Counted from the first letter of the stretch, positions 15,495 through 44,600 are shown. The stretch: DNA of 44,600 nt from an uncultured Pseudomonadota bacterium (GCA_963770835.1 CAVYRH010000014.1:1-44600), one strand, 5' to 3'. Notes: a model not told the origin generated them from the sequence alone. Numbers and translations: made by a program.

Positions 15495-18400
15495 ATGAAA
15501 AACGTTTCCGGAAAAATCAGCGTGAAAGTCTCCACATTAAAGGCCCTGGGCAGGGGTCTTTTGCTTTTCACCGCCCTTGCGGCGGGACGGTCCTGGGCCA
15601 TTCCGATCAACCCCGTGACTTCGGCCAATACCTTCCAAAGCGCGGTTTCCACCATCAACGGGCTCGGGATCGCCAATAGCTTGACCTTTGAGTCCGGTTT
15701 GATCGACCTGAATACCCTGACGACCCCTCCCCTTGGCACCTTGAACTACAACACGATTTTCGTCAGCACGCTGGGCACGGTCCCGGTGACCCTGACCAAC
15801 CTGGGCATCGGCGACGCGGTCAGCTTTAACTCCACGGCCCAAGTCCAAATATCCGGCAACTACAACTTCACCATCCTGGGCGGCGGGAACCTGGGGTTGA
15901 ACTCCGGCAACAACGGCATTTCGGGCAACAGCGCCTCGCTCACGGCCGGGTCAATCCTGGTGGATCCGGGCGCGGGCCTCTATGTGGCGGGCGGCGCGGG
16001 ACAAGCGGTCACGGGCTACGGAAGCCTGGTGGGCAACGGCGGCAACGGCGGCAACGCGAGCCTGTCGGTCTCGGGCCCGGTTTCGGTGGACGGCTTCTCC
16101 ATGGCCGTCAGCGGCGGCATCGGCGGCAATTCCTACGGTGCCAACGGCGGCAATGGCGGGAACGCCACGGCCACCCTGGGTTCGAGCCTGGGCGTATCCG
16201 ATTCCAATTTCGGCGTTTACGGCGGTGAAGCCGGTTACAACGGTGACGACGGCCCGGGCCTGGGCGGCAACGGCGGCAACGCCACCTTGTCGGTGGCCGG
16301 CGCGGTTGCGGCAACTGTCTCCTCGGACATTTACGTTTATGGCGGGGTCGGGGAGTACGGTTACGGCGCCCACGGCCAGACCGAGGGGAACGGCGGAAGC
16401 GCGGCGGCATCCTTGGGCGGTACCCTGGCCCTGGCCGGCTCCAATATGTTCGTCGAAGGCGCAACGGGCGCGTCCGACGACATCGGCAACGGCGCCAACG
16501 GCGGCGCGGGCGGCAACAGCGGCCTGTCGGTTTCGGGCGCGGTTTCGGTGGGTGCGGGCGAATTGTATGTTTCGGGCGGTGAAGGCGGCGATTCCTACGG
16601 TGCAAACGCCGGCAACGGCGGAAGCGCCTCCGCGAATTTCGGCTCCAACTTGACCCTGGCCTCCGCAACCCTCGGCGTGGCGGGCGCGGAAGGCGGCTAC
16701 AACGACGAAGAAGACCCGGGCGTTTCCGGCAATGGCGGCAACGCCACGCTGTCGGTGGCGGGTGCGGTTTCCGTGACCGCCAGCGCGGTAACCGTGGCGG
16801 GCGGCGGAGGGGATTACGGCTACGCGAGCCGGGGCGTGACCCAGGGGGCGGGCGGGAATGCCCAGGCCTCCATGACGGGCCTGAACATGGGCGGTACCTC
16901 CAACCTGGAGATCTACGGCGGCGAAGGGGCATCGGATTACGGCTATACGGGCGGAGTGGGGGGCGCGGGTGGAAACGCCGGTTTGTCCGTTTCGCAGGGG
17001 GTTTCCCTGACCGGCAGTTACGTGTACGTTTCCGGCGGGGAGGGCGGGTATGCCTATTCCGCCAACGGCCTCAATGGCGGGGACGGCATGGTGAGCATCG
17101 GATCGAACTTAAGTTTGGCCTCAGCCTCGTCCCTTGACCTCTACGGCGGTGAGGGCGGCTATAACGACGACGCGGGCAACGGCGTGGGCGGCAACGGCGG
17201 CAACGCCACGCTGTCGGTGGCCGGCGCGGTTTCCATTGATGACAGCGCCGTCACTGTCCTGGCGGGCGATGGGGATGAGGGATACGGGGACCACGGCCAG
17301 ACCGAAGGCGCCGGCGGCAACGGCTTTGCCAGCCTGGGCAGTTTGAGCCTGGTGGACCATTCCATCCTGGAAGTGGCCGGCTCGACCGGGGCTTATGACT
17401 ACGAGTACAACGGCGCCAATGCCGGAAGCGGCGGCAACGGAACCCTGGATATTTCCGGGGCGGTTTCGATGGATACCAGCGACCTGGGCGTTTACGGCGG
17501 CGACGGCGCCTATGCCTATTCGGGCAACGGCGGCAACGGCGGCAACGCGAACTTGAACATCGGGTCCAATCTCACCCTGAACAGCGCCGCCGGCACGGTG
17601 TTGGGCGGGTACGGCTATTACAACGACGACGAAGGCCCGGGCGTTTCCGGCAACGGCGGCAACGCCGGCCTGTCGGTTTCGGGCGCGGTTTCGATGAACG
17701 CCGGCACCCTCCTGGTCGAGGCCGGTTACGCGGATTACGGTTACGGGGCCGGCGGCACGACCGAGGGGTCGGGCGGGAGCGCCTCGGCCAGCATCGGGGG
17801 GGATTTGACCATGGTCACCTCCACTTTTGACACCCTGGGTGAATACGGCGCCTATGACGAACGGTACGGCGGCGCCAGCGGCGGCAACGGCGGCAACGCC
17901 AGCCTGTCGGTGGCGGGCGCGGCTTCGGTGAGCGCCGGCACGCTGGAGGTGGAGGCCGGCGCCGGTGGATATTCCTATTCGGCCAACGGCGGCAACGGCG
18001 GCAGCGCCTCGATGAGCGTCGGGTCCGGTTTGACCCTGAACGGCACCAACTCCTATGTGCTGGGCGGCGACGCCTCCTATAACGACGACGAAGGCCTCGG
18101 CGTGGGCGGAAGCGGCGGCAACGCCGGCTTGTCCGTGGGCGGCGCGGTCTCGATGGGCACCAGCACCCTCGAGGTCGAGGCCGGCTACGGGTATGAGGGC
18201 TACGGGGGCTCCGGCATGAGCGAGGGGGCCGGCGGAAGCGCCACGGCCAGCGTGGGCAGTTTGACGGCGGGCAATTCCACTTTTGAGGTCTTAGGCAATT
18301 ACGGCGGGTATGACTACGCGTACAACGGCGCCAATGCCGGAAGCGGCGGCAACGCCAGTTTGTCGGTGAATGGCGCGGCTTCGGTGAGCCACACCACCTT

Positions 18401-21400
18401 TGAGGTGGAAGGCGGCGCGGGCGCCTATGCCTATAGCGGCAACGGCGGCAACGGCGGCAACGCGACGATGAACGTCGGGTCCGGCTTGAACCTGCTGGGC
18501 GGCACCGCCGCCACGGTGGAAGGCAACGCGGGTTCCTACAACTACTACGGTTACGGCCCCGGCGTGGGCGGCAGGGGCGGCAACGGAACGCTTTCGGTCG
18601 GGGGCGCGGTCACCATGGCCTTGAGCGACCTGACGGTCGAGGGCGGCGACGCCAGCTACGGATACGGGACCTCCACAATGACTGCGGGGGTGGGCGGCAA
18701 CGCCATCGCCACCATGGGAAGCCTGGCCATGACCCAGACCTCCAACCTTTTAGTGGAAGCCGGTGAAGGCGGCTCGGATGACGGCTATAACGGCGGGAAG
18801 TCCAGCCAGGCCGGCACCGCGGTCTTGGAGGTTTCGGGCGGCGTGGCCGTCAGCTCAAGCGCGATCACCGTGGAAGGCCAAACGGGCGGGTATGCCTACA
18901 GCAACGCGGGCAGCGCGGGCGGGGACGCGAGCTTTTTAACCGGCTCTGGGCTGTCCCTGACCAAGGCCGCGGCTTCTTCTTCCTCCGATCTTATAGTGGA
19001 GGGCGGCGAAGGCGGTTATGTCAACAAGGACCAATCGGGCCTGGGCGGCCGGGGCGGCAACGCCGACTTGTCGGTGGCGGGCGCGGTTTCCATGGACTCC
19101 AGCTACGCCACGGTCGAAGGCGGCGAGGGCGATTACGGCTATGGGTCCGCCGGGCAGGCCGAAACATCGGGCGGGAACGCCACGGCTTTAATGTCCAGTT
19201 TGACCATGACCGGCATTGCCGGGGGACAGTCCGATTTGTCGGTGGAAGGCAACATGGGAACGGGCGATTCCCAGGACGGTGGGGCCAGCGGCGGTGCCGG
19301 CGGCAAGGCCTTGCTTTCGGTCTCGGGCGCGGTTTCCCAGGATGACGGCTATGTTTACCTGCTCGGCGGCGCGGGTGGCTATTCCGACGGCGGCAACGGG
19401 GGCAACGGCGGGGACGCCACTATGACCGTGGGCTCCAATTTGACCTTGACCGGGGTTTCGGGCGCTTCCACGGTCTACATGGACGGCGGCAACGGCTCTT
19501 ATAACGACGACCAAGGCGTGGGCCTGGGCGGAAGCGGCGGCAACGCCAGCTTGTCCGTGGGCGGCGCGGTTTCCCTGACGGGTACCAGCGCGATCCAGAT
19601 TTTCGGCGGCGACGGCAGTTACGGTTACGGCGTCGCGGGCATGACTGAGGGTTCCGGGGGTAATGCCACGGCCACCATGGAGAGCCTGAGCCTGTCGAAC
19701 CATTCCAAAATTTTCGTCGGCGGTGACGGCGGGTCTTATGACGCCAGGAACGGCGGGGCCAATGGCGGGGCGGGCGGCAGCGGCACCCTGTCGGTTTCCG
19801 GGCCGGTCTCGGCCGATATCAGCTTCATCGACGTCTATGGCGGGACCGGGGGTTATTCCACCGGGCTTGCGGCCGGCAAGGGCGGCGATGCCACGGTGAA
19901 TATAGGCTCCAACCTGACGCTGACGGACTTAAGCATCGTCGATCTCTCCGGGGCCAGCGGCGGGTATGACGACAATACGGGCGGCGGCCTCTCCGCCAAG
20001 GGCGGCAACGCCAACCTGTCGGTTTCGGGCGCGGTCTCCATGGATTCCAGCGTCGTGAACGTCGCGGCGGGTTCGGCCTCTTACGGTTATGGTGCGGCGG
20101 GAGTGACCCAGGCCTCTGGCGGAAACGCCACGGCTTCCATGTCCAGCTTGACCATGACCGGGGTGGCGAGCGGCCCGAGCACCCTCTACCTTTTTGCCGG
20201 CGCGGGCGCGGAAGATGACCTCCACGGAACCGGCGGCAATGCCGGGAACGTCGAGTTGACCGTTAACGGCGCGGCCAGCGTGAGCAACAGTTCCTTGATC
20301 GAGCTTGTCGGGTCCACGGGCGGGACGGGCGCGGTTACGGGCATGGGAAGCCAGGTCTCGGCCTCCTTTGGTTCCCTGAACCTGGCGGATGCGGGTTCCA
20401 CCTTGAACGCGCAAAGCGTGAGCCAGGGCGGAAGCGTCTCCGTTGCCATCGGCACTCTCATGGGCGACGGGGCGGTTACCTTGAACGGTGCGGCCCAGAG
20501 CGGGCTTTATGTCTCGGCCGGCGATTTCACCGGACTTCTCAAGGGCAATGAAACCCTCGACAAGACCGGGACCGGAACCCTTATCCTTACCGGCTCCAAC
20601 ACCTATACGGGCGGCACCAGCATCCTGGGCGGCTCGCTGGCGGTGAGCGTGGGCAACGCGCTGGGCACGGGCAAAGTGGCGGTCGAGGGCGGGACGCTGG
20701 AAACCGACAACGGCCCCTTGACCATCGCGGTGGCGGGCAACTATAGCCAGGGGGCCTCGGGCAACCTGCAGATTGGCCTGGCCCGCGCCACCAGCCATGA
20801 CCTTTTGAGCGTGGCGGGCAACGCCGACCTAGGCGGCACCCTGACCGTGGCTTCCTCGGGCACGACCTTCCGGCCGGCCCTGGGTTCGGAATACCAGGCC
20901 GTGACCGTGGCGGGCGCCCTTTCGGGCAGCTTCGGCAGCCTGCATAGCGGCTTCCTGGGACTGCAATTCGAGCCCATTTACCAGGCCAACGACGTGCTGG
21001 TGGAAACCGAGGCCTTTTCGTTTGAGGCCGAGGGCACGAACGCCAACGGCAAGGCCTTGGGCGCGGTGCTGGACGGACTGGTTTCCTCGGGCAACGGGCC
21101 GGTTTCGGCGCTTTTGCAAATCCAGAACTCGTCCAACGTCAACCAGACGATGAACCAGGTGGCCCCGACGGCGCTCACCTCCGCTTTTGAGATGGGCTTC
21201 CTCAATTCGCAGGCCACGGCCCAATTGCTGGACGCGAGGCTTTCGGCCCTCTTTGAGGGCGGCCTTGGCGGGTCCTCCGCCTCGGCGTGGAACCGCAACG
21301 GCGGCAACCTGATGTTCGCGGGCAACATGTCCGCGGATGACGAGGAACAGATCGCCCAAAACGCCAAGGCCCGGGACCAGGGCGCCAACGGCAGCTGGGA

Positions 21401-22205
21401 CGGGTTCCTGACCGGCATTGGCAACTTCGGCGCGCTCACGGGCGACGCCAACACGGCCGGCTACAACTATTCGACCGGCGGGGTGATGGGCGGCGCGGAC
21501 CAGAAGATCGACCATGGCCTGAGCTGGGGCCTGATGGCGGGCTATGTCCAGTCGGTCATGACCGCTTCCGCCGGCTCGGTGACCCTCTCGGGCGCCCAAG
21601 TGGGCGTCTATGGCGGTACCAAGTCGGGGAACCTGGACCTGGGCGCGGTCCTTGCGGGCAGCCTGAACAGCTACAACACCAGCCGGGAAGTCATGGGCCA
21701 GACGGCCACCGGCAATACCCAGGGCATGGGCTTGAGCGGCCAGCTTTCCCTGGGCTACGACCTGGCGGCGGGCGGCTTGAAGTTGCAGCCCTTCGCCGAC
21801 GGCCAGTATTCCAGCGTGGGCATGAACGCCTTCACCGAATCCGGATCGTCCCTGGACAACAAGGTGGCGGCGCAGAGCCAGGACAGCCTTTCCAGCGACC
21901 TGGGCCTGAGGGCCCGTACGAGCCTGGAGATGGGCGGGGGATTCGCGCTGACGCCGAACGTGAGCGCGGCCTGGCAACACCTGTACCAGGGCAGCATGCC
22001 TGCCCTGGACAGCGCCTTTACGGCGGGCGGCGGCTCCTTCTCCGTGGATGGGCCGGCAACGGGCACGGACGGCTTCGTGCTTGGCGCGGGGGTGAACGCG
22101 AAGGTCGCCAAGGGGTTCAACCTCTTTGCCCAGTACCAGGGCACAGTGGGGATGACGAACTTCACTTCGCAGGAAGTGGATGGGGGTGTGAACGTCGGCT
22201 TCTAA
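15495..22205 (+). CDS. Type V autotransporter adhesin with Gly-rich repetitive passenger
   Basis: Signal peptide ending RSWA; GGNGGNA repeats; passenger-associated repeat LDKTGTGTLILTGSNTYTGGTSILGG; C-terminal beta-barrel ending GVNVGF. Confidence 0.92.
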   Translation: MKNVSGKISVKVSTLKALGRGLLLFTALAAGRSWAIPINPVTSANTFQSAVSTINGLGIANSLTFESGLIDLNTLTTPPLGTLNYNTIFVSTLGTVPVTLTNLGIGDAVSFNSTAQVQISGNYNFTILGGGNLGLNSGNNGISGNSASLTAGSILVDPGAGLYVAGGAGQAVTGYGSLVGNGGNGGNASLSVSGPVSVDGFSMAVSGGIGGNSYGANGGNGGNATATLGSSLGVSDSNFGVYGGEAGYNGDDGPGLGGNGGNATLSVAGAVAATVSSDIYVYGGVGEYGYGAHGQTEGNGGSAAASLGGTLALAGSNMFVEGATGASDDIGNGANGGAGGNSGLSVSGAVSVGAGELYVSGGEGGDSYGANAGNGGSASANFGSNLTLASATLGVAGAEGGYNDEEDPGVSGNGGNATLSVAGAVSVTASAVTVAGGGGDYGYASRGVTQGAGGNAQASMTGLNMGGTSNLEIYGGEGASDYGYTGGVGGAGGNAGLSVSQGVSLTGSYVYVSGGEGGYAYSANGLNGGDGMVSIGSNLSLASASSLDLYGGEGGYNDDAGNGVGGNGGNATLSVAGAVSIDDSAVTVLAGDGDEGYGDHGQTEGAGGNGFASLGSLSLVDHSILEVAGSTGAYDYEYNGANAGSGGNGTLDISGAVSMDTSDLGVYGGDGAYAYSGNGGNGGNANLNIGSNLTLNSAAGTVLGGYGYYNDDEGPGVSGNGGNAGLSVSGAVSMNAGTLLVEAGYADYGYGAGGTTEGSGGSASASIGGDLTMVTSTFDTLGEYGAYDERYGGASGGNGGNASLSVAGAASVSAGTLEVEAGAGGYSYSANGGNGGSASMSVGSGLTLNGTNSYVLGGDASYNDDEGLGVGGSGGNAGLSVGGAVSMGTSTLEVEAGYGYEGYGGSGMSEGAGGSATASVGSLTAGNSTFEVLGNYGGYDYAYNGANAGSGGNASLSVNGAASVSHTTFEVEGGAGAYAYSGNGGNGGNATMNVGSGLNLLGGTAATVEGNAGSYNYYGYGPGVGGRGGNGTLSVGGAVTMALSDLTVEGGDASYGYGTSTMTAGVGGNAIATMGSLAMTQTSNLLVEAGEGGSDDGYNGGKSSQAGTAVLEVSGGVAVSSSAITVEGQTGGYAYSNAGSAGGDASFLTGSGLSLTKAAASSSSDLIVEGGEGGYVNKDQSGLGGRGGNADLSVAGAVSMDSSYATVEGGEGDYGYGSAGQAETSGGNATALMSSLTMTGIAGGQSDLSVEGNMGTGDSQDGGASGGAGGKALLSVSGAVSQDDGYVYLLGGAGGYSDGGNGGNGGDATMTVGSNLTLTGVSGASTVYMDGGNGSYNDDQGVGLGGSGGNASLSVGGAVSLTGTSAIQIFGGDGSYGYGVAGMTEGSGGNATATMESLSLSNHSKIFVGGDGGSYDARNGGANGGAGGSGTLSVSGPVSADISFIDVYGGTGGYSTGLAAGKGGDATVNIGSNLTLTDLSIVDLSGASGGYDDNTGGGLSAKGGNANLSVSGAVSMDSSVVNVAAGSASYGYGAAGVTQASGGNATASMSSLTMTGVASGPSTLYLFAGAGAEDDLHGTGGNAGNVELTVNGAASVSNSSLIELVGSTGGTGAVTGMGSQVSASFGSLNLADAGSTLNAQSVSQGGSVSVAIGTLMGDGAVTLNGAAQSGLYVSAGDFTGLLKGNETLDKTGTGTLILTGSNTYTGGTSILGGSLAVSVGNALGTGKVAVEGGTLETDNGPLTIAVAGNYSQGASGNLQIGLARATSHDLLSVAGNADLGGTLTVASSGTTFRPALGSEYQAVTVAGALSGSFGSLHSGFLGLQFEPIYQANDVLVETEAFSFEAEGTNANGKALGAVLDGLVSSGNGPVSALLQIQNSSNVNQTMNQVAPTALTSAFEMGFLNSQATAQLLDARLSALFEGGLGGSSASAWNRNGGNLMFAGNMSADDEEQIAQNAKARDQGANGSWDGFLTGIGNFGALTGDANTAGYNYSTGGVMGGADQKIDHGLSWGLMAGYVQSVMTASAGSVTLSGAQVGVYGGTKSGNLDLGAVLAGSLNSYNTSREVMGQTATGNTQGMGLSGQLSLGYDLAAGGLKLQPFADGQYSSVGMNAFTESGSSLDNKVAAQSQDSLSSDLGLRARTSLEMGGGFALTPNVSAAWQHLYQGSMPALDSAFTAGGGSFSVDGPATGTDGFVLGAGVNAKVAKGFNLFAQYQGTVGMTNFTSQEVDGGVNVGF

Positions 22206-38069: not shown

Positions 38070-38348
38070 ATGGGCACCAAGAAAAACAGGGATTCGGGTA
38101 TCAGTTCTTTCGTGGAGGACCTGCTGGAGAGGGAAGGCCTCGTTCTCTTTGAAAAGTGGTTCGAGCGCTTAAAACAGTCGGCCCCTCCCGGTCAAAAGGT
38201 AACGGATTTCGAGGTTCGGGACGAAATGGTCGGGGAAATCGCTTCTTTAGTTACCCAGGATAATTCCTTGATTTTGGGCAAGAAAGACAAGCTTTTGATC
38301 GAGGAAATTTTGAACAAGTTCTTAAAGAAAGCCGACCTTTTGCGGTAG
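38070..38348 (+). CDS. Hypothetical protein (92 aa)
   Basis: GAGGA RBS; helical, charged; no family recognised. Confidence 0.7.
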   Translation: MGTKKNRDSGISSFVEDLLEREGLVLFEKWFERLKQSAPPGQKVTDFEVRDEMVGEIASLVTQDNSLILGKKDKLLIEEILNKFLKKADLLR

Positions 38349-38644: not shown

Positions 38645-40648
38645 TTATTTTGAAGGGGTTGAGTTGGGTGTAGGTTCGGGGGTCGGGTTGGTTTGGGGCC
38701 GCGGGTCGAAGTCGGTCGGGATGATATTCGTCACCCCGAGGGTTTGATCCACGGGGGTTACCCCGACGTCCTTCATACCGAACCCGCTCTTTTCCGGAAG
38801 CGTCCCCACAATGGTCTCGGGGATCGTTGCGTAATCGGGCGGGAGGATGGAAACAGCGCCGTTTAAGCGGGCCGGGTCAAAAGCCGCCACCAGGTCGGAA
38901 ACGTCCGGCGTCAGGGCGTCGTCCGGCCCCCAATTGTCCTGCCCCAGGTTCTTCTTGCCGAGTTTGCGGCCTTTCAGTTCGTCCGGGAGCTTGGCCAGCG
39001 GGGTGAGCCCGAAGACCGTATCCACGAACTTGACCACCGAACCATGGTCCCCCGTCTCATGCACCACCGAATGAGCCCTCGCGTAGGGGGAAATGAGCAG
39101 GAAGGGAATCCGGGGTCCATCGCTGATGGCTTCCTTGTCCGGGCCGAAGACGCGTAGGGGTGGCGGAACGTGGTCGTAGAATCCCCCTTCGTCGTCCCAG
39201 GCGATTAGAATGGCGCAGTTGTTCCAATATTGGCTCTTGGCGATGGTGTTGATCACCTCGGCCAGCATGGCCTCGCTGATCTGGGAGTCCGAACCGCCCG
39301 GATGGTCGTCGTCCCCCAGGTACCTTTTCTGGGACGCCGCGTCCGGATTGGCCGGGTTCAAACCTAAGAGATTCCGATAGCCGCCCTTCACGTAATAAAC
39401 GCCCCCGTCGGGGGAAAGGGTTCCCTTGGCGACGGCGGGCATAAAGTCCCGCAGGTCATGGAGGCTACCTGCCATGGCCGGGCTGTGGACGATGTAACCG
39501 AAATATTGCGGGCCGTTATGGTGGGTGACATAGGACATATGGACCCCATCGGCATCGGTCGGGTCCTCACCGCCGGGAATGGGCTCCCCATACCCCTCCT
39601 GGTACCAACCCCAAGAAACGGCCTTGCTCCCCTTTTGGCTTAAATAGGCAACGTCGTCCCCCAAATCCTCAAGGTCGGAGTCCTTCTCCGGGTCTTCGGA
39701 AGTCTGGCTTTGGGCCTCGGTACCGGCCAGGGAAAGGGCGAGGGTCGCGTAGGTCTGGTTGTATTGGACATCATCCTCCTTCTTTTTGGAGAAGTCCTTC
39801 GGGTTCACAGGCATTTTGGGGTTGGACTGGGTGTCCTCGGGCGATCCCCAATAGGGGTCGGAGCTGTTCAGGACCGGTTCGCCCTCGCCTTTTTTCCCGA
39901 AATCCTTTTCCATCCTGTCGGGGTGGAGGACGCCCTCGGTTTGCCCGCTTTGGGCGGCGATGATGGACAGGTTGCCGGGGGTGGAAGGGCCAACCATCAA
40001 TTGGAAAAAGTGGTCAAAAATGACGAACCGGTTGGCGTAGCGCCAGAGGAAGGGGATGGTTTCGCCGTCGAGATGGGCCATGGTGATTTCCCCGAATTGC
40101 TTGGCTTTCAGGGTGGGAAGGGCTTTCGGGTCTTTTTTCAGTTCTTCCGACAGTGCGAACTTGTCCATCAGCGGGTTCCCGTCCGTCACATCCATCTTTT
40201 GGCCCAATATCAAGTGGCCGTGGCCGACGTCGTCGAGGTCGGCGGCGTATTCCTTGGGCCCGATGCGGAAGGGCTGGATTTGCATGGTGGTTCCGTCGGT
40301 GTTTTCGATGTCCTGGGTAAAGCCGGGGGTCTCGCTTTGCGAGTGGGAATAGATACCCTCCACGCCGGGGAAGGTGCCGAAATAGTGGTCAAAGGAGCGG
40401 TTTTCCTGGTAGAGGATGAAAACATATTTAACATTTTGGCGCAGGAGGGAAAGCAGTTGCTTCCGGGTGAGGCGGGGCTCCTTCGACTTAGGGACTTCTA
40501 AAGGGGCGACTTGGTCGTCGCCGGTGGGGGGAAGGCTCTCGACCGAGGATTTGGAAAGCGGTTTGGAAAAGGCTGGGGAAGACAGGCCGACAAATGAGAA
40601 AATTCCCAAGGTGCAGAGGACGCCAAAGGCAGCTCGAAAGAATTTCAT
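38645..40648 (-). CDS. Phosphoesterase / phospholipase C (AcpA-like) family, secreted
   Basis: YQENRSFDHYFGT, GPSTPGN, DDHP, WDDEGGFYDHVPPP, GPRIP..ISPY, DHGS. Confidence 0.93.
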   Translation of the reverse strand: MKFFRAAFGVLCTLGIFSFVGLSSPAFSKPLSKSSVESLPPTGDDQVAPLEVPKSKEPRLTRKQLLSLLRQNVKYVFILYQENRSFDHYFGTFPGVEGIYSHSQSETPGFTQDIENTDGTTMQIQPFRIGPKEYAADLDDVGHGHLILGQKMDVTDGNPLMDKFALSEELKKDPKALPTLKAKQFGEITMAHLDGETIPFLWRYANRFVIFDHFFQLMVGPSTPGNLSIIAAQSGQTEGVLHPDRMEKDFGKKGEGEPVLNSSDPYWGSPEDTQSNPKMPVNPKDFSKKKEDDVQYNQTYATLALSLAGTEAQSQTSEDPEKDSDLEDLGDDVAYLSQKGSKAVSWGWYQEGYGEPIPGGEDPTDADGVHMSYVTHHNGPQYFGYIVHSPAMAGSLHDLRDFMPAVAKGTLSPDGGVYYVKGGYRNLLGLNPANPDAASQKRYLGDDDHPGGSDSQISEAMLAEVINTIAKSQYWNNCAILIAWDDEGGFYDHVPPPLRVFGPDKEAISDGPRIPFLLISPYARAHSVVHETGDHGSVVKFVDTVFGLTPLAKLPDELKGRKLGKKNLGQDNWGPDDALTPDVSDLVAAFDPARLNGAVSILPPDYATIPETIVGTLPEKSGFGMKDVGVTPVDQTLGVTNIIPTDFDPRPQTNPTPEPTPNSTPSK

Positions 40649-40911
40649 TTTTTACTCCAGGAATTTAGAGAAAGTTTGTTACGTGTGTCTAGTCATAATG
40701 GACCGGTTGATATTTCCCTAGGGTTAAATCCCCGTTTCCAGGTCGTTGTCTTTCCATTGCAAAAACGACATCTTAGAAGGTGTTTTGGGAGCCTTAAAGG
40801 GTGATCCCTTTTGGCATGGAGGGACCTGATCGTGAATTATGGGCGGGGAAGAAAAATGGGGGTACTTTAGCAGGACTGGGGGGTGATAAATATTGCCGCT
40901 TTCGGGGCGGC

Positions 40912-41064
40912 AGGCTCGGTGCAGGGGCACCCAATCTTTTTATCGTTTGGACTGGGTACACCCAAATCTCGCACCTCGCCTGGTACCAATTGTCATTCAA
41001 TTGGCATTACCTGACATACCACGCACCTAGTGGGTGCGTGGTGGTAATAGGCTCGGTGCAGGGG
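40912..41064. repeat. 16-bp direct repeat around two palindromes
   Basis: AGGCTCGGTGCAGGGG at 40912-40927 and 41049-41064; inside, CCAATTG-N5-CAATTGG (40986-41004) and ACCACGCACC-N5-GGTGCGTGGT (41018-41042). Confidence 0.85.
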
Positions 41065-41265
41065 TCAGTTGGCCTCGAACCGGCTGATAATCCTCTTGAA
41101 TTCCATCCCTTTGGGCGTGTAATGGCAAAGGGTTTCATTCGGGTTTTTCCCGTTCCTAATCTTCTCCAGCCAGCCATTCTTGATAAAAGCCTCGACGGCG
41201 CTCTTGTCGTCAAAAAGAACGGCAGTTTGGGGCTCGGTTGTGTTCGTCATGGGCCAGTTCCTCAT
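41065..41265 (-). CDS. Small hypothetical ORF, possibly a winged-helix fragment
   Basis: FIKNGWLEK...HYTPKGMEF resembles a wHTH wing; start uncertain; may be a remnant. Confidence 0.4.
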   Translation of the reverse strand: MRNWPMTNTTEPQTAVLFDDKSAVEAFIKNGWLEKIRNGKNPNETLCHYTPKGMEFKRIISRFEAN

Positions 41266-41544
41266 GGAAACTCGACGGTTGGAATCTATGAAGTCTTGTG
41301 ACTCGATTCAAGTAAGCCACAAGGTCGGTTAACCAACTATGTCATGTGTCATAACTTCATTCTATTTATTGTTTTGGTCTTAGCATGGTCCTTGTCGGTT
41401 TAACTAAACCAAGAACACCAATAAGTGATTCCGACTCCGTAAATGGCCCTCCACTTCTAACGATATTTCCCCCGGGAGTATCTATTCACTGATGAAACCC
41501 CTAGGCTAGGTAAAAAACCCACAAAATTCGAGGAGAAGTATTCA

Positions 41545-41871
41545 ATGACCGCACTTCAAAAACTAGAAGTTCAAAATACACTGGATGAAAGCGGAATCCC
41601 GTCGGGCGGGTTTGTGCGCGGTATCGGCATTTCCATTACCTGGCAGGATAGCCCCTTGGGAAGGGGCGCGGAGCGCAAGGAACAAACCGGGGCTTCTTTG
41701 GAAGATGTCCTCGAGGCTTGCCTGAGCCGTTTGAAATATTACCAAGGCACGAAATTCAATTGCCCCGAGAACGTCATGGCCTTAAACGATTTGGAAGGGG
41801 CCCTCAAATGGCTCCGGAAACGGACGGAAGCCCGCGAGAAGAGGCTGGTCGAAGGGACGCATAATATTTAA
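41545..41871 (+). CDS. Tad1/Acb2-family cyclic-nucleotide sponge homologue
   Basis: ITWQDSP...GASLEDVLEACLSRLKYYQGTKFNCPENVMALNDLEGALKWLRKRTEAREKRLVEGTH follows the recalled Tad1 pattern IxFQxG...GV..DLL....RL..FQ..PF...EN..AL...EEAL.W...R...R..R.V.GT; GAGGAG RBS. Confidence 0.8.
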   Translation: MTALQKLEVQNTLDESGIPSGGFVRGIGISITWQDSPLGRGAERKEQTGASLEDVLEACLSRLKYYQGTKFNCPENVMALNDLEGALKWLRKRTEAREKRLVEGTHNI

Positions 41872-41982
41872 AACTCCCAACCGGACCGATGGCGCGTCAG
41901 TATTCCACGCAACAAGATTCCCTCTTAATTTATTTTTCAACGCCGCCCAAATAGAAATCGCTTCGTTGTAACCCCGCCAAGT

Positions 41983-42606
41983 CTAGTTGCCGGTGATTAC
42001 GACCCCGATGATCACCAGCATCACCAACACCACGGCCCATAAGCGCCAGTCGAGGAGCACGCGTCGCCAAAAGGGGGGCCGAACCCCAGTGGTTGCCGGT
42101 TCCGGGGTGGCGGTGGAGTCCGGTTCATTTTGAGGGGTTGCCAGCTGGCCGGGCTCCGCGGTTGATCCCAAGGGAGCGGCCCCTAGATCCGTTTTTTTCA
42201 CCCGCTTTTCCGAGTGGGAAGCGGCCGCTTTTCTCGCCCCTGGAGGCAACCCTTCAAATCCCTGTCGAACCGCCGATTCAACATTGGGAAAAAATTTTAA
42301 GATCGTGCTGAATTGAAGGAGATCGAAAACTTCCAGGACATCGGGGCTCATTCCCGACAGCACCAGATCCCCGTTTTCACCGCGGATGCGCTTGATCTCA
42401 CTGACAAAAAGGCCCCATCCCGCGCTGCTGATGTAGTTGGCGTCTTTTAGGTCCACCACCAACTTGTACTGGTGATCCCTCAAGGCGATCTGGAAATTTT
42501 TATCGAATTCGGAAATCGTGTTGGTGTCCAGCGAGCCTTTGACCGTGATGAGGGTGATGTCCTTGTTCAGGGGTGATTTGGAAAGACTGACAGTGAGGTT
42601 GTCCAT
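41983..42606 (-). CDS. STAS-domain anti-sigma-factor antagonist with C-terminal membrane anchor
   Basis: KGSLDTNT, VVDL...YISSAGWG, GDLVL; Pro/Ala linker; terminal WAVVLVMLVIIGVVI. Confidence 0.88.
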   Translation of the reverse strand: MDNLTVSLSKSPLNKDITLITVKGSLDTNTISEFDKNFQIALRDHQYKLVVDLKDANYISSAGWGLFVSEIKRIRGENGDLVLSGMSPDVLEVFDLLQFSTILKFFPNVESAVRQGFEGLPPGARKAAASHSEKRVKKTDLGAAPLGSTAEPGQLATPQNEPDSTATPEPATTGVRPPFWRRVLLDWRLWAVVLVMLVIIGVVITGN

Positions 42607-42682: not shown

Positions 42683-43648
42683 TTAGAAAGCGGGGTCCTT
42701 TCCGTGTTCTGCCAGCCACCCTAAAAGCTGGCGGATACTTCCGGTCGCCAGCGCGATGCTGGTATCCGCGGCTCCGTAATAAAGATTAATCGTGTCCCCG
42801 TCCGCGCCGATGGTTTGACCGCAGGGAAACGCAACGTTGGAAACATCGCCTTCGCGTTCATAAGGGGCCTCGGGGCTGAAGATCCACTCATCGCCCCGAA
42901 GAAGACATTGTTCCGGATTGTCCAGGGCGAGGAGGGCGGTGCCCAGGCGGTAAATACATCCCGAGGCCGTTTGCCGGACGCCGTGGTAAAGCATGAGCCA
43001 TCCCCGGGGCGTCTCGATCAAGGGCCCGGTGAGCCCGACCTTATTGGCGTCCCACCAAGCGCCCTGGCGCGCCGGCAGGACCAACTTGTGATTTCCCCAG
43101 TTCTGGAGGTCGGGCGAATAGGAAATCCAAATATGGGCGCCCCGGTCGTTGATGGGGCGGTGGATGAGCGCGTAACTGCCGTTGATGCGCCGGGGGAGCA
43201 GGGCCGCGTCCTTGTCATCGGGCTGCATGACCATGCCATAGCGCTTGAAGGTGCAAAAATCCCCGGTCTCCGCCAGGGCCACCCCCGGCCCCCCCTTGCT
43301 GTAGGCGGTATAGGCCACCATGTACATACCGGTTTCCTCCAGGAAGGTGATTCGAGGGTCCTCGATGCCCCAGAGTTCCTCCGGGTAATTCTTCGGATCG
43401 GGTAGGAGGGTGGGGTTTTCGTCGATGACCCATCCGTCAAACCCGTTTTTCGAGCGCGCCGCGCAGAGGTGTGAAAGTCCCCGGCGGTCCTCGACCCGGC
43501 AGAGCAACAACGTGGTGCCGTCCTTGAGCCGCGTGGCGCCGGGGTTGAAAACTGAATGGATCGGATAGGGCCAGTCGGCCGCCGTCAAAACCGGGTTTTT
43601 CCCGTGCCGTTTAAACAAAACCTCATAACCTATTTTGGATGTCGTCAC
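42683..43648 (-). CDS. Glycoside hydrolase family 130 (mannoside phosphorylase/glycosidase)
   Basis: VFNPGA, GIEDPRIT, DDKDAAL, WLMLYHG, YYGAAD; GTG start at 43648 overlaps the upstream stop (GTGA). Confidence 0.92.
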   Translation of the reverse strand: MTTSKIGYEVLFKRHGKNPVLTAADWPYPIHSVFNPGATRLKDGTTLLLCRVEDRRGLSHLCAARSKNGFDGWVIDENPTLLPDPKNYPEELWGIEDPRITFLEETGMYMVAYTAYSKGGPGVALAETGDFCTFKRYGMVMQPDDKDAALLPRRINGSYALIHRPINDRGAHIWISYSPDLQNWGNHKLVLPARQGAWWDANKVGLTGPLIETPRGWLMLYHGVRQTASGCIYRLGTALLALDNPEQCLLRGDEWIFSPEAPYEREGDVSNVAFPCGQTIGADGDTINLYYGAADTSIALATGSIRQLLGWLAEHGKDPAF

Positions 43649-44600
43649 CTTGTCCCCCGTCCGTTTGGTTTCGCACTGCCGCCGTCGGCGGATTGCATTT
43701 CGAAAAGCGCGAGAAGGAAAGAAAGCGTCGATTCGGCGCCCTCGTTCTCGTTCACCCGGTCGGCATGAAGCCCATCGCGGCAACCGCCGGTCGCCACGTT
43801 GTAAAGGGGTTGCCGCAACTGGTTTTCCCCCAGGAACCAATTGAAGGCGCGGCGCGCCTGTTCCACCCATTCGGCCTCGCCTGTCACCCGGTGCGCTTCC
43901 AGGCAGGCCGAAACTACGCCACAGGCCTCCACGGGTTGCTGGTCGAAGGCGGCTTTCAATCCGCCCCGCGCGTAAAACCCGTTGGAACCGATGGGGGCGA
44001 AAACGCCGCCCTCCGACCATTGGGCCGAAACCAGCCAGGAGAGCGATTCCAGGCCGGCCCCGATCATGGTCTTGTCCTCCATCCAGTTTCCCGAGACAAT
44101 CAGCGCTTGGGAAAGCCGCGCGTTTTCATAAGTCGCCTGGTCCTCGAACCAGGGCCAGTCGCCGGTCCGCGTCCGTTGGTAAAGCCCCAGGAGGCGCTCG
44201 GCGATGGTCTTTCGCACCGACTGTACGCCGCGGTCGCCCTCGAAGGCGCGTAAATATTCGTCGATACCCAGGAGCGAGAAAGCCCAGGCGCGGGGGCTGG
44301 AAAAACCCTGGATGGTGGGCAGGGCCGCTTGCAGGAGGTCTTGGCTCAGGCTGGAACGCCCCGGATCCTGGGCCCTTCCCACCACACTCCCCAGCGCCCA
44401 AAGGGCCCGCCCGTGGCTTTCCTCCGAGCCGCAGCCCTCCACCCATTGCCGCGAGTAGGGCAGGAAATTCCGGAACCGTCCCTTTTCGGGGTCGAAAGCG
44501 TGGTTTACGAAGGCCAGGTATCGTGCCGACAGCGCACGCGATTCCCCCGTTGGAACGATGCCCGCGTCCTCAATGAGGGTCATCAGGAGCAGCAATACAT
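43645..44600 (-). CDS. C-terminal six-hairpin-like domain of a GT4-type glycosyltransferase fusion, partial
   Basis: GRFRNF, SEESHGRALWALG, WPWFE...YENARL, FDQQPVEA, WFLGEN, GGCRDGL, NENEGAEST; this family commonly sits next to GH130. Confidence 0.82.
   Translation of the reverse strand, partial: VLLLLMTLIEDAGIVPTGESRALSARYLAFVNHAFDPEKGRFRNFLPYSRQWVEGCGSEESHGRALWALGSVVGRAQDPGRSSLSQDLLQAALPTIQGFSSPRAWAFSLLGIDEYLRAFEGDRGVQSVRKTIAERLLGLYQRTRTGDWPWFEDQATYENARLSQALIVSGNWMEDKTMIGAGLESLSWLVSAQWSEGGVFAPIGSNGFYARGGLKAAFDQQPVEACGVVSACLEAHRVTGEAEWVEQARRAFNWFLGENQLRQPLYNVATGGCRDGLHADRVNENEGAESTLSFLLALFEMQSADGGSAKPNGRGTR

Follow-up and report, generated by a model that had tools for sequence, protein, structure and literature searches.

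A Tad1-family gene among cellular genes of a soil bacterium: fold, predicted ligand pocket and possible origins

The subject of this report is a small Tad1-family gene near one end of a 44,600-nucleotide stretch of DNA from an uncultured Pseudomonadota bacterium (GCA_963770835.1 CAVYRH010000014.1:1-44600). This stretch, called the window throughout, is the entire 44.6-kb contig C14 of G000, a 4.58-Mb metagenome-assembled genome that is 96% complete and 3.7% contaminated, and because the window is the whole contig only 2.7 kb of DNA lies to the right of the gene. The gene occupies 41545..41871 on the plus strand (108 codons plus stop) and is preceded at 41530..41535 (+) by a Shine-Dalgarno-like GAGGAG, 9 nt ahead of the ATG, both as read from the sequence. 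A preliminary description of the window had reported an intact 108-amino-acid open reading frame (ORF) with a good ribosome-binding site and had quoted a Tad1 pattern for it. Both statements held, and the pattern RLKYYQGTKFNCPEN..AL..LEGALKWLRKRTEAREKRLVEGT is present in the translation. To the left lies a phosphoesterase gene (PF04185, 38645-40648, minus strand) and to the right, also on the minus strand, are a gene for a STAS protein (41983-42606), a GH130 gene (42683-44020) and a last ORF truncated at the contig end (43645-44598). The preliminary description had named the phosphoesterase, STAS and GH130 neighbours correctly; its GT4 call was not confirmed, as the last ORF has no Pfam family. 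Its statement that the window holds no integrase or phage structural gene was borne out by two scans that agree: neither Pfam (29 ORFs) nor PHROGs (33 ORFs) found an integrase, terminase, portal, capsid or tail module in the window.

The window protein is a true Tad1 homologue with a predicted Tad1 fold. In a single-sequence phmmer search of the PDB (177,635 sequences) the Tad1 chains alone were significant (expectation value, E, 1.4e-8 to 2.1e-8, over residues 39-107), and the next match was the phage protein gp184 at E 0.051. A profile built from 60 relatives found CmTad1 at 3.3e-18 and CbTad1 at about 7e-17. Among PHROGs the match was to phrog_2428 (function not assigned there; E 2.6e-18), with residues 27-107 lying on profile positions 54-130 of 131; the phage copy at locus L030 matches the same family (E 6.5e-23). 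The AlphaFold2 model has a predicted local distance difference test (pLDDT) score of 90.9 and consists of three strands (8-13, 19-26 and 29-33) followed by two long helices (52-67 and 74-99). When this model was compared with the PDB by Foldseek, all 20 matches at E<=0.001 were Tad1, with template modelling (TM) scores of 0.66-0.77, and the next match had an E of 0.27. The profile and structure checks that the preliminary description had proposed thus both returned Tad1 (profile 3.3e-18; Foldseek top 20). Relatives are numerous (among 1.84 billion proteins, 1478 representatives reach E<=0.001 and 414 reach E<=1e-10), and in the ESM Atlas the Pfam family PF24729, Acb2_Tad1_hairpin, is assigned to 29 of the 30 nearest clusters. 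Neither the protein (at E<=10) nor the 60-relative profile (at E<=1) found any Acb2 chain in the PDB, so the protein is Tad1-type and not Acb2-type. The joint "Tad1/Acb2" call made earlier is therefore kept for Tad1, on sequence, profile and predicted fold, and dropped for Acb2, whose likeness is confined to the common superfamily label. PADLOC gave no match for the window protein; a weak match of its paralogue (E 0.008, PDC-M10A) was disregarded.

The best comparison is with the solved Tad1 proteins CbTad1 and CmTad1, encoded by prophages of Clostridium botulinum and Clostridioides mangenotii (PDB 7UAV/7UAW/8SMD, 8KBB-8KBH). They are homologous to the window protein over residues 30-107 and have the same predicted fold (TM 0.66-0.77), but identity over the structural alignment is only 24-26%, the solved chains are longer (123-138 residues against 108, the window protein having a shorter N-terminal part), and the window protein is encoded among chromosomal genes. 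The founding member of the family, Tad1 of the Bacillus phage SBSphiJ7, is closer over the two-helix hairpin (53% identity, residues 49-106, E 4e-13); it differs in its length (142 amino acids), in a phage genome context and in keeping a C-R-E-N...T motif.

The ligand contacts of Tad1 can be placed on the window protein by an ungapped alignment to CbTad1, with numbering anchored by eight residues named in PMC10680739. Conservation was counted in two sets: 60 family members, and the 33 close members that form the clade described below. In CbTad1 the pocket for glycocyclic ADP-ribose (gcADPR) and 2',3'-cyclic GMP-AMP (2',3'-cGAMP) is made by F82, N92, R109 and R113 (PMC10680739). By this alignment, all four pocket residues are conserved in the window protein. 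Y66 (41740..41742, +) stands at the place of F82, which stacks on the ligand base, and is Tyr or Phe in 56/60 members; N76 (41770..41772, +) corresponds to N92 and is Asn in 58/60 members and 31/33 of the clade; R93 (41821..41823, +) corresponds to R109 (Arg in 60/60 and 32/33); and R97 (41833..41835, +) corresponds to R113 (Arg in 60/60 and 33/33). The aromatic, Asn and two Arg contacts to which the preliminary description had pointed are thus the right ones.

The second ligand site of Tad1 reads differently. CbTad1 R90 and T97 (CmTad1 R88 and T95) contact the phosphates of cyclic trinucleotides and also take part in hexamer formation, and the site is reported to be substituted in 6% of Tad1 homologues (PMC10680739). 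In the window protein both residues are replaced: P74 (41764..41766, +) stands at the place of the Arg and is Pro in 33/33 clade members, and N81 (41785..41787, +) stands at the place of the Thr, a position at which the clade has Ser in 27, Asn in 5 and Gly in 1 of 33. With these substitutions the window protein likely no longer binds cyclic trinucleotides. Cys73-Pro74-Glu75 is invariant in the clade and W89 is found in 32/33. Loss of the trinucleotide site is not unique to the clade, because among 43 more distant relatives Arg is found at only 11 and Thr at only 10. Among eight phage-borne relatives that were read, three keep both residues (the L030 copy, on an IMG/VR contig with terminase, portal and head genes; a prophage copy on contig C20 of genome G011; and SBSphiJ7 Tad1), and L031 and Vibrio phage BX-1, at the least, lack them. 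Two of the five hexamer-interface residues named for CmTad1 match identically (W103=W89 and K106=K92).

The preliminary description had singled out other deviations, in the WQDSP and QTGA segments. These are real: the residue at 36 is Gly in 57/60 of the family and Ser in the window protein, and position 48 is Asn in 41/60 and Thr in the window protein. Ser36 and Ser51-Leu52 are not sequencing errors, because they are also found in the 92%-identical metagenome protein P0001. The exchange at P74 and N81, which the preliminary description had missed, is the more telling deviation.

The window protein belongs to a clade with a narrow distribution. A second copy, 72% identical, lies on contig C9 of the same genome, and altogether, within one bacterial family, 8 of 31 species genomes carry the clade, in copies that are 63-74% identical. 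One further genome of the family holds a fragment with a stop. In 68 genomes from the phylum's other families the clade was absent. Protein catalogues add to the genomic copies 27 clusters that are 61-92% identical; 25 of them are 108 amino acids long, and for the remaining two the listed lengths are 121 and 122. In a quickly searched tree with 84 relatives, all 33 clade members fall on one side of a branch with a Shimodaira-Hasegawa-like approximate likelihood ratio (SH-aLRT) support of 99 and a stem of 0.67 changes per column; the branches within the clade are short, and the clade lies inside a radiation that includes phage-borne proteins, with neighbouring branches not settled. The wider family does include phage-borne members; within it the chromosomal clade forms a single derived branch. 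In INPHARED 119 phage records match, all below 60% identity, and in PLSDB the six matching records are all non-mobilizable Bacillus plasmids. An exact-peptide scan of IMG/VR found no relative; a degenerate scan found five loci at 45-57% identity, so the best viral relative stands at 57%, and neither pattern set brought up a clade member in IMG/VR.

The clade is under purifying selection. All ten genomic copies are intact at exactly 108 codons, and the ratio of nonsynonymous to synonymous substitution rates (dN/dS) is 0.007-0.25 in 39 of their 45 pairs (most at 0.04-0.25; the other six are saturated), ratios that are rough because dS is near or at saturation. The window copy has a dN/dS of 0.12-0.25 in eight computable pairs, the ninth being saturated. 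Its composition is host-like: GC content at third codon positions (GC3) is 0.61, inside one standard deviation of 903 long host ORFs (0.70 +/- 0.10).

The genomic contexts of the ten copies were scanned with Pfam, and with PHROGs for ORFs that had no Pfam match. Cellular genes, some of them housekeeping, flank nine of the ten, and none lies among phage genes. Around these nine no phage or integrase family was found, their examined flanks hold no integrase or transposase, and the surroundings of eight metagenome loci were likewise free of phage and recombinase families. The neighbours vary: a beta-lactamase-fold gene, STAS, a gene for a 92-amino-acid protein and RpoD in G001; glyoxalase and pirin in G010; a lipase and a thiamine-binding protein in G021; LigB in G007; a TPR protein, HU and rhodanese on G011:C2; DUF1207 on G008:C75; an NHL protein and an SbmA/BacA transporter in G018; and HU and the 92-amino-acid gene on G008:C148. 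Four of the eight metagenome contigs are the same organisms as the bins (99-100% identity). Two others are independent relatives in which the context is kept, L037 compared with G001 (86% protein identity) and L043 compared with G008:C148 (88%), and the remaining two show further contexts. Around L043 and L044 the genes include HU, FabD-like, Der, PlsY and GpsA.

A synteny check, also proposed earlier, found the window locus partly shared with the sister species G001. Five genes are common to both, at 58-77% identity and in a rearranged order: the Tad1-like gene (74%), STAS (60%), the 92-amino-acid gene (73%), a GGDEF/EAL gene (77%) and glyoxalase (58%). A syntenic empty site was looked for in G002 and G003 and rejected, as the STAS matches there are paralogues without common flanks. 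Long-term chromosomal residence of the clade in one soil bacterial family is supported by these observations, and this part of the earlier suggestion of a host-adopted gene stands: the clade is family-restricted, and nine of ten copies lie among cellular genes.

Contig pieces identical to the locus turned up in soil metagenome runs; these come from two studies, and one of the two may be the source sample. A single piece of 1138 bases bridges the upstream region and the complete Tad1-like gene and reaches into STAS at its 3' end. Among the 13 runs listed none is of RNA.

Upstream of the gene is an 896-bp stretch (40649-41544) that is AT-richer (GC 0.47) and has no convincing gene. Within it the motif GGAGTATCTATT-N-GAAAC-N-CCTAGGCT at 41475..41511 (+) may be a promoter or operator. 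By alignment, a near-identical string lies upstream of the G010 copy and a looser one before the G011:C2 copy, both in other genera; the motif matches no Rfam family and no sigma-70 consensus. A riboswitch or other known RNA was rejected for the region (no Rfam match at E<=1 across 40500-42100), and promoter and terminator scans around the gene gave background level only. The stretch also holds a perfect 10-5-10 dyad, ACCACGCACC ... GGTGCGTGGT, at 41018-41042 and a 16-nt exact direct repeat (40912-40927 and 41049-41064). Flanking repeats were considered as ends of an element and rejected, as those found are short, imperfect and chance-like. A gene-cassette origin of the C14 and C9 copies was rejected as well: an 11-6-11 dyad (28 bp) that starts with TGTCCACGA is frequent in G000 (C3, C15, C4, C11 and others) and is absent from both contigs. 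This string or a one-letter variant starts 36 of 263 near-perfect dyads in G000.

The other genes of the window are cellular by Pfam: a luciferase-like oxidoreductase, HxlR, pirin, a REC-PAS-GGDEF-EAL protein, GH26, TraB/GumN, ADH, a GDSL lipase and a beta-lactamase-fold protein. The PHROG matches in the window are to generic domains (REC, GGDEF/EAL, ADH); the beta-lactamase-fold protein matches a PHROG labelled 'minor tail protein with lysin activity' and was counted as generic too. No tRNA genes were found in the window. A 2236-amino-acid ORF with a PATR autotransporter repeat (15495-22205, +) lies in a block of GC 0.66-0.69, against 0.49-0.64 elsewhere on the contig. The long GH130 ORF shares about 375 nt with the last ORF, and its true start is probably further downstream, because the Pfam match begins at residue 155.

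Taken together, the evidence makes it probable, with some room for doubt, that the gene encodes a chromosomal, non-prophage Tad1-family protein predicted to sequester an adenine-containing cyclic nucleotide (gcADPR-like or cyclic-dinucleotide-like) in a Tyr-Asn-Arg-Arg pocket. The protein would oligomerise as Tad1 does and, as a sponge or receptor for a small molecule, would work alone. Anti-defence cargo of mobile elements is the probable source of the clade, a descent suggested because the same family has both a low-GC paralogue next to a conjugative coupling protein and, in a prophage, a 53% relative; the chromosomal copies would then be kept for some host-level benefit.

Several observations weigh against this proposal. 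First, the window's 96%-complete genome gave no match to TIR_2, ThsB_TIR, TIR, SIR2_2 or SMODS. Second, the pocket itself may differ, given Ser36 and the replacement of Asn76 by His or Tyr in two of 33 clade members. Third, carriage is patchy (two of four genomes in the genus as well as 8/31 in the family) and the loci show about nine differing contexts; patchiness and varied contexts fit an accessory, occasionally moving gene equally well. Fourth, the clade is still tied to mobile DNA, because the C9 paralogue lies downstream of a TraG/TraD-type coupling protein, and contig C9 (24 kb, GC 0.49) could itself be mis-binned. Every genome used is a metagenome bin. Finally, the local PF24729.2 model (gathering cut-off 27 bits) misses the protein and seven relatives at E<=10 and gives nothing at E<=1 in the genome; PF24729.3 is assigned to 18 of 27 close relatives in a precomputed table.

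The signal a sponge would bind in these hosts was approached through the makers of known immune signals. The preliminary description had proposed a search for Thoeris and CBASS in the host, and none was found, with no TIR, ThsB, SIR2_2 or CD-NTase match; a SAVED search of the same genome also found nothing, but its control matched nowhere either. Across the 31 family genomes SMODS was found in one of eight clade holders (G001) and one of 23 non-holders, and TIR_2 in two of eight holders (one below the cut-off) and seven of 23 non-holders. Across the family, carriage of the Tad1-like gene does not follow that of TIR_2 or SMODS, and buffering of the host's own Thoeris or CBASS is therefore not supported for most holders. 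Because no makers of either kind were detected, the in vivo ligand is likely to come from incoming or neighbouring elements, or to be an endogenous nucleotide new to the fold. One holder stands apart: G001 has a TIR_2 match and two matches to SMODS (CD-NTase) clustered within 4 kb (G001:C102:5566-9705), likely a defence island, and carries a chromosomal Tad1-like gene as well.

A more specific version of the proposal is that of a domesticated sponge, in which a Tad1 branch of one family of uncultured soil bacteria lost its trinucleotide site, settled in the chromosome, housekeeping genes included among its neighbours, and now buffers or senses, for the cell, a nucleotide messenger that belongs to neither Thoeris nor CBASS. 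This is a tentative idea, more likely wrong than right.

The main rival to the overall proposal is that the gene is ordinary cargo, still moving from one chromosomal site to another: an anti-defence sponge of conjugative elements or phages, whose chromosomal copies are recent drop-offs or unrecognised small elements, kept for helping incoming DNA and not for serving the host. Two loci speak for it. The C9 paralogue (19118-19441, minus strand; GC3 0.40) lies in a low-GC block and comes last in a same-strand row (L010:10363-14621) made up of the TraG/TraD-type coupling protein of a type IV secretion system (T4SS), a 264-amino-acid ORF, a helix-turn-helix protein (HTH_23) and two ORFs of about 100 amino acids; a conjugative element likely carries it as cargo. 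Such elements, to our knowledge, are not usually reported to have Tad1 relatives. The 53% relative on G011:C20 has a polyvalent ART-domain protein on one side and head and tail genes on the other. The prophage around it (L018, 2792-9724 and 12112-19997) encodes major head, tail and internal virion proteins, and its 2310-amino-acid polyvalent protein (ART-PolyVal, LPD22) directly adjoins this canonical relative, which keeps the Arg and Thr. The patchy distribution, the roughly nine insertion contexts and the many flanking ORFs without a family also suit cargo. However, cellular genes lie on both sides within 60-250 bp at several loci (glyoxalase and pirin in G010; the NHL protein and SbmA/BacA in G018), the examined flanks of nine of ten copies are free of integrases and transposases, context recurs across species-level divergence, the GC3 of the window copy is host-like, and IMG/VR yielded no clade member to the two pattern sets. 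On balance cargo is an unlikely account of the chromosomal copies, if one that has to be taken seriously.

A third possibility is that the fold has been repurposed, with the Tad1 scaffold acting not as a sponge but as a nucleotide-sensing regulator or as a partner of another protein, for example the 92-amino-acid or the STAS protein. A long stem branch leading to a slowly evolving clade would suit such a change, as would the clade-specific invariants (C73-P74-E75, and W89 in all but one member), and both candidate partners recur nearby. The 92-amino-acid gene (38070-38348, + in the window; no Pfam or PHROG family and no usable Atlas match) lies upstream on the same strand, adjacent in G008:C148/L044, at 1.2 kb in G001 (right after rpoD) and at 3.2 kb in the window, and a STAS gene adjoins in G000, G001 and L037. 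Neither held up as a partner: the 92-amino-acid gene is present in 16 of 31 family genomes, mostly away from the Tad1-like gene, and STAS has 4-13 matches per genome and a placement relative to the gene that differs between G000 and G001. Moreover, no neighbour is common to all contexts, and because the pocket residues are the most conserved positions, ligand binding is favoured as the core function; a repurposed fold is accordingly rated improbable. The preliminary description had also raised a decayed prophage. On this reading the gene would be all that is still legible of the prophage and would have escaped selection. The idea draws on the report that Tad1 homologues in RefSeq bacterial genomes lie nearly 100% in prophages (PMC11724313) and on the AT-richer, apparently gene-free stretch upstream, but it is very unlikely indeed, being largely excluded by selection (dN/dS of 0.12-0.25 for the window copy and mostly 0.04-0.25 in the clade, on the rough ratios above), host-like composition and the neighbourhood partly shared with G001, together with a 108-codon length kept in 10/10 genomic copies and 25/27 catalogue relatives and the absence of phage genes over 44.6 kb.

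There is precedent for a family common to phage counter-defence and the bacterial chromosome in Apyc1 and NARP1/2, which are mostly chromosomal (PMC11724313). Those proteins differ in being enzymes thought to be bacterial in origin and co-opted by phages, whereas the wider Tad1 family has phage-borne members and only one branch of it, restricted to one bacterial family, is the chromosomal clade. Full-text searches of the literature found no chromosomal Tad1 clade described, although supplementary material (Table S1 of PMC12393519 and Extended Data Figure 9 of PMC10680739) may list such sequences; the Tad1 tree of PMC12393519 is described as drawing on IMG/VR proteins only.

Tad1 sponges have been seen as phage tools, and the clade described here is instead kept by purifying selection in bacterial chromosomes. 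It is confined to one bacterial family among the genomes searched, its hosts mostly show no TIR or CD-NTase genes, and by its residues it appears to have lost one of the two Tad1 ligand sites. If the proposed history is true, the traffic would have run in an unusual direction, from mobile counter-defence to host gene. Sponges have repeatedly been used as baits for finding new immune signals (PMC12393519), and if the clade is a domesticated sponge its protein could serve as bait for its own messenger. Even if the gene should prove to be plain cargo of conjugative elements, Tad1 would be extended beyond phages. In either case the clade offers a simple object on which to ask what use a sponge may be to a cell and which nucleotide it binds.

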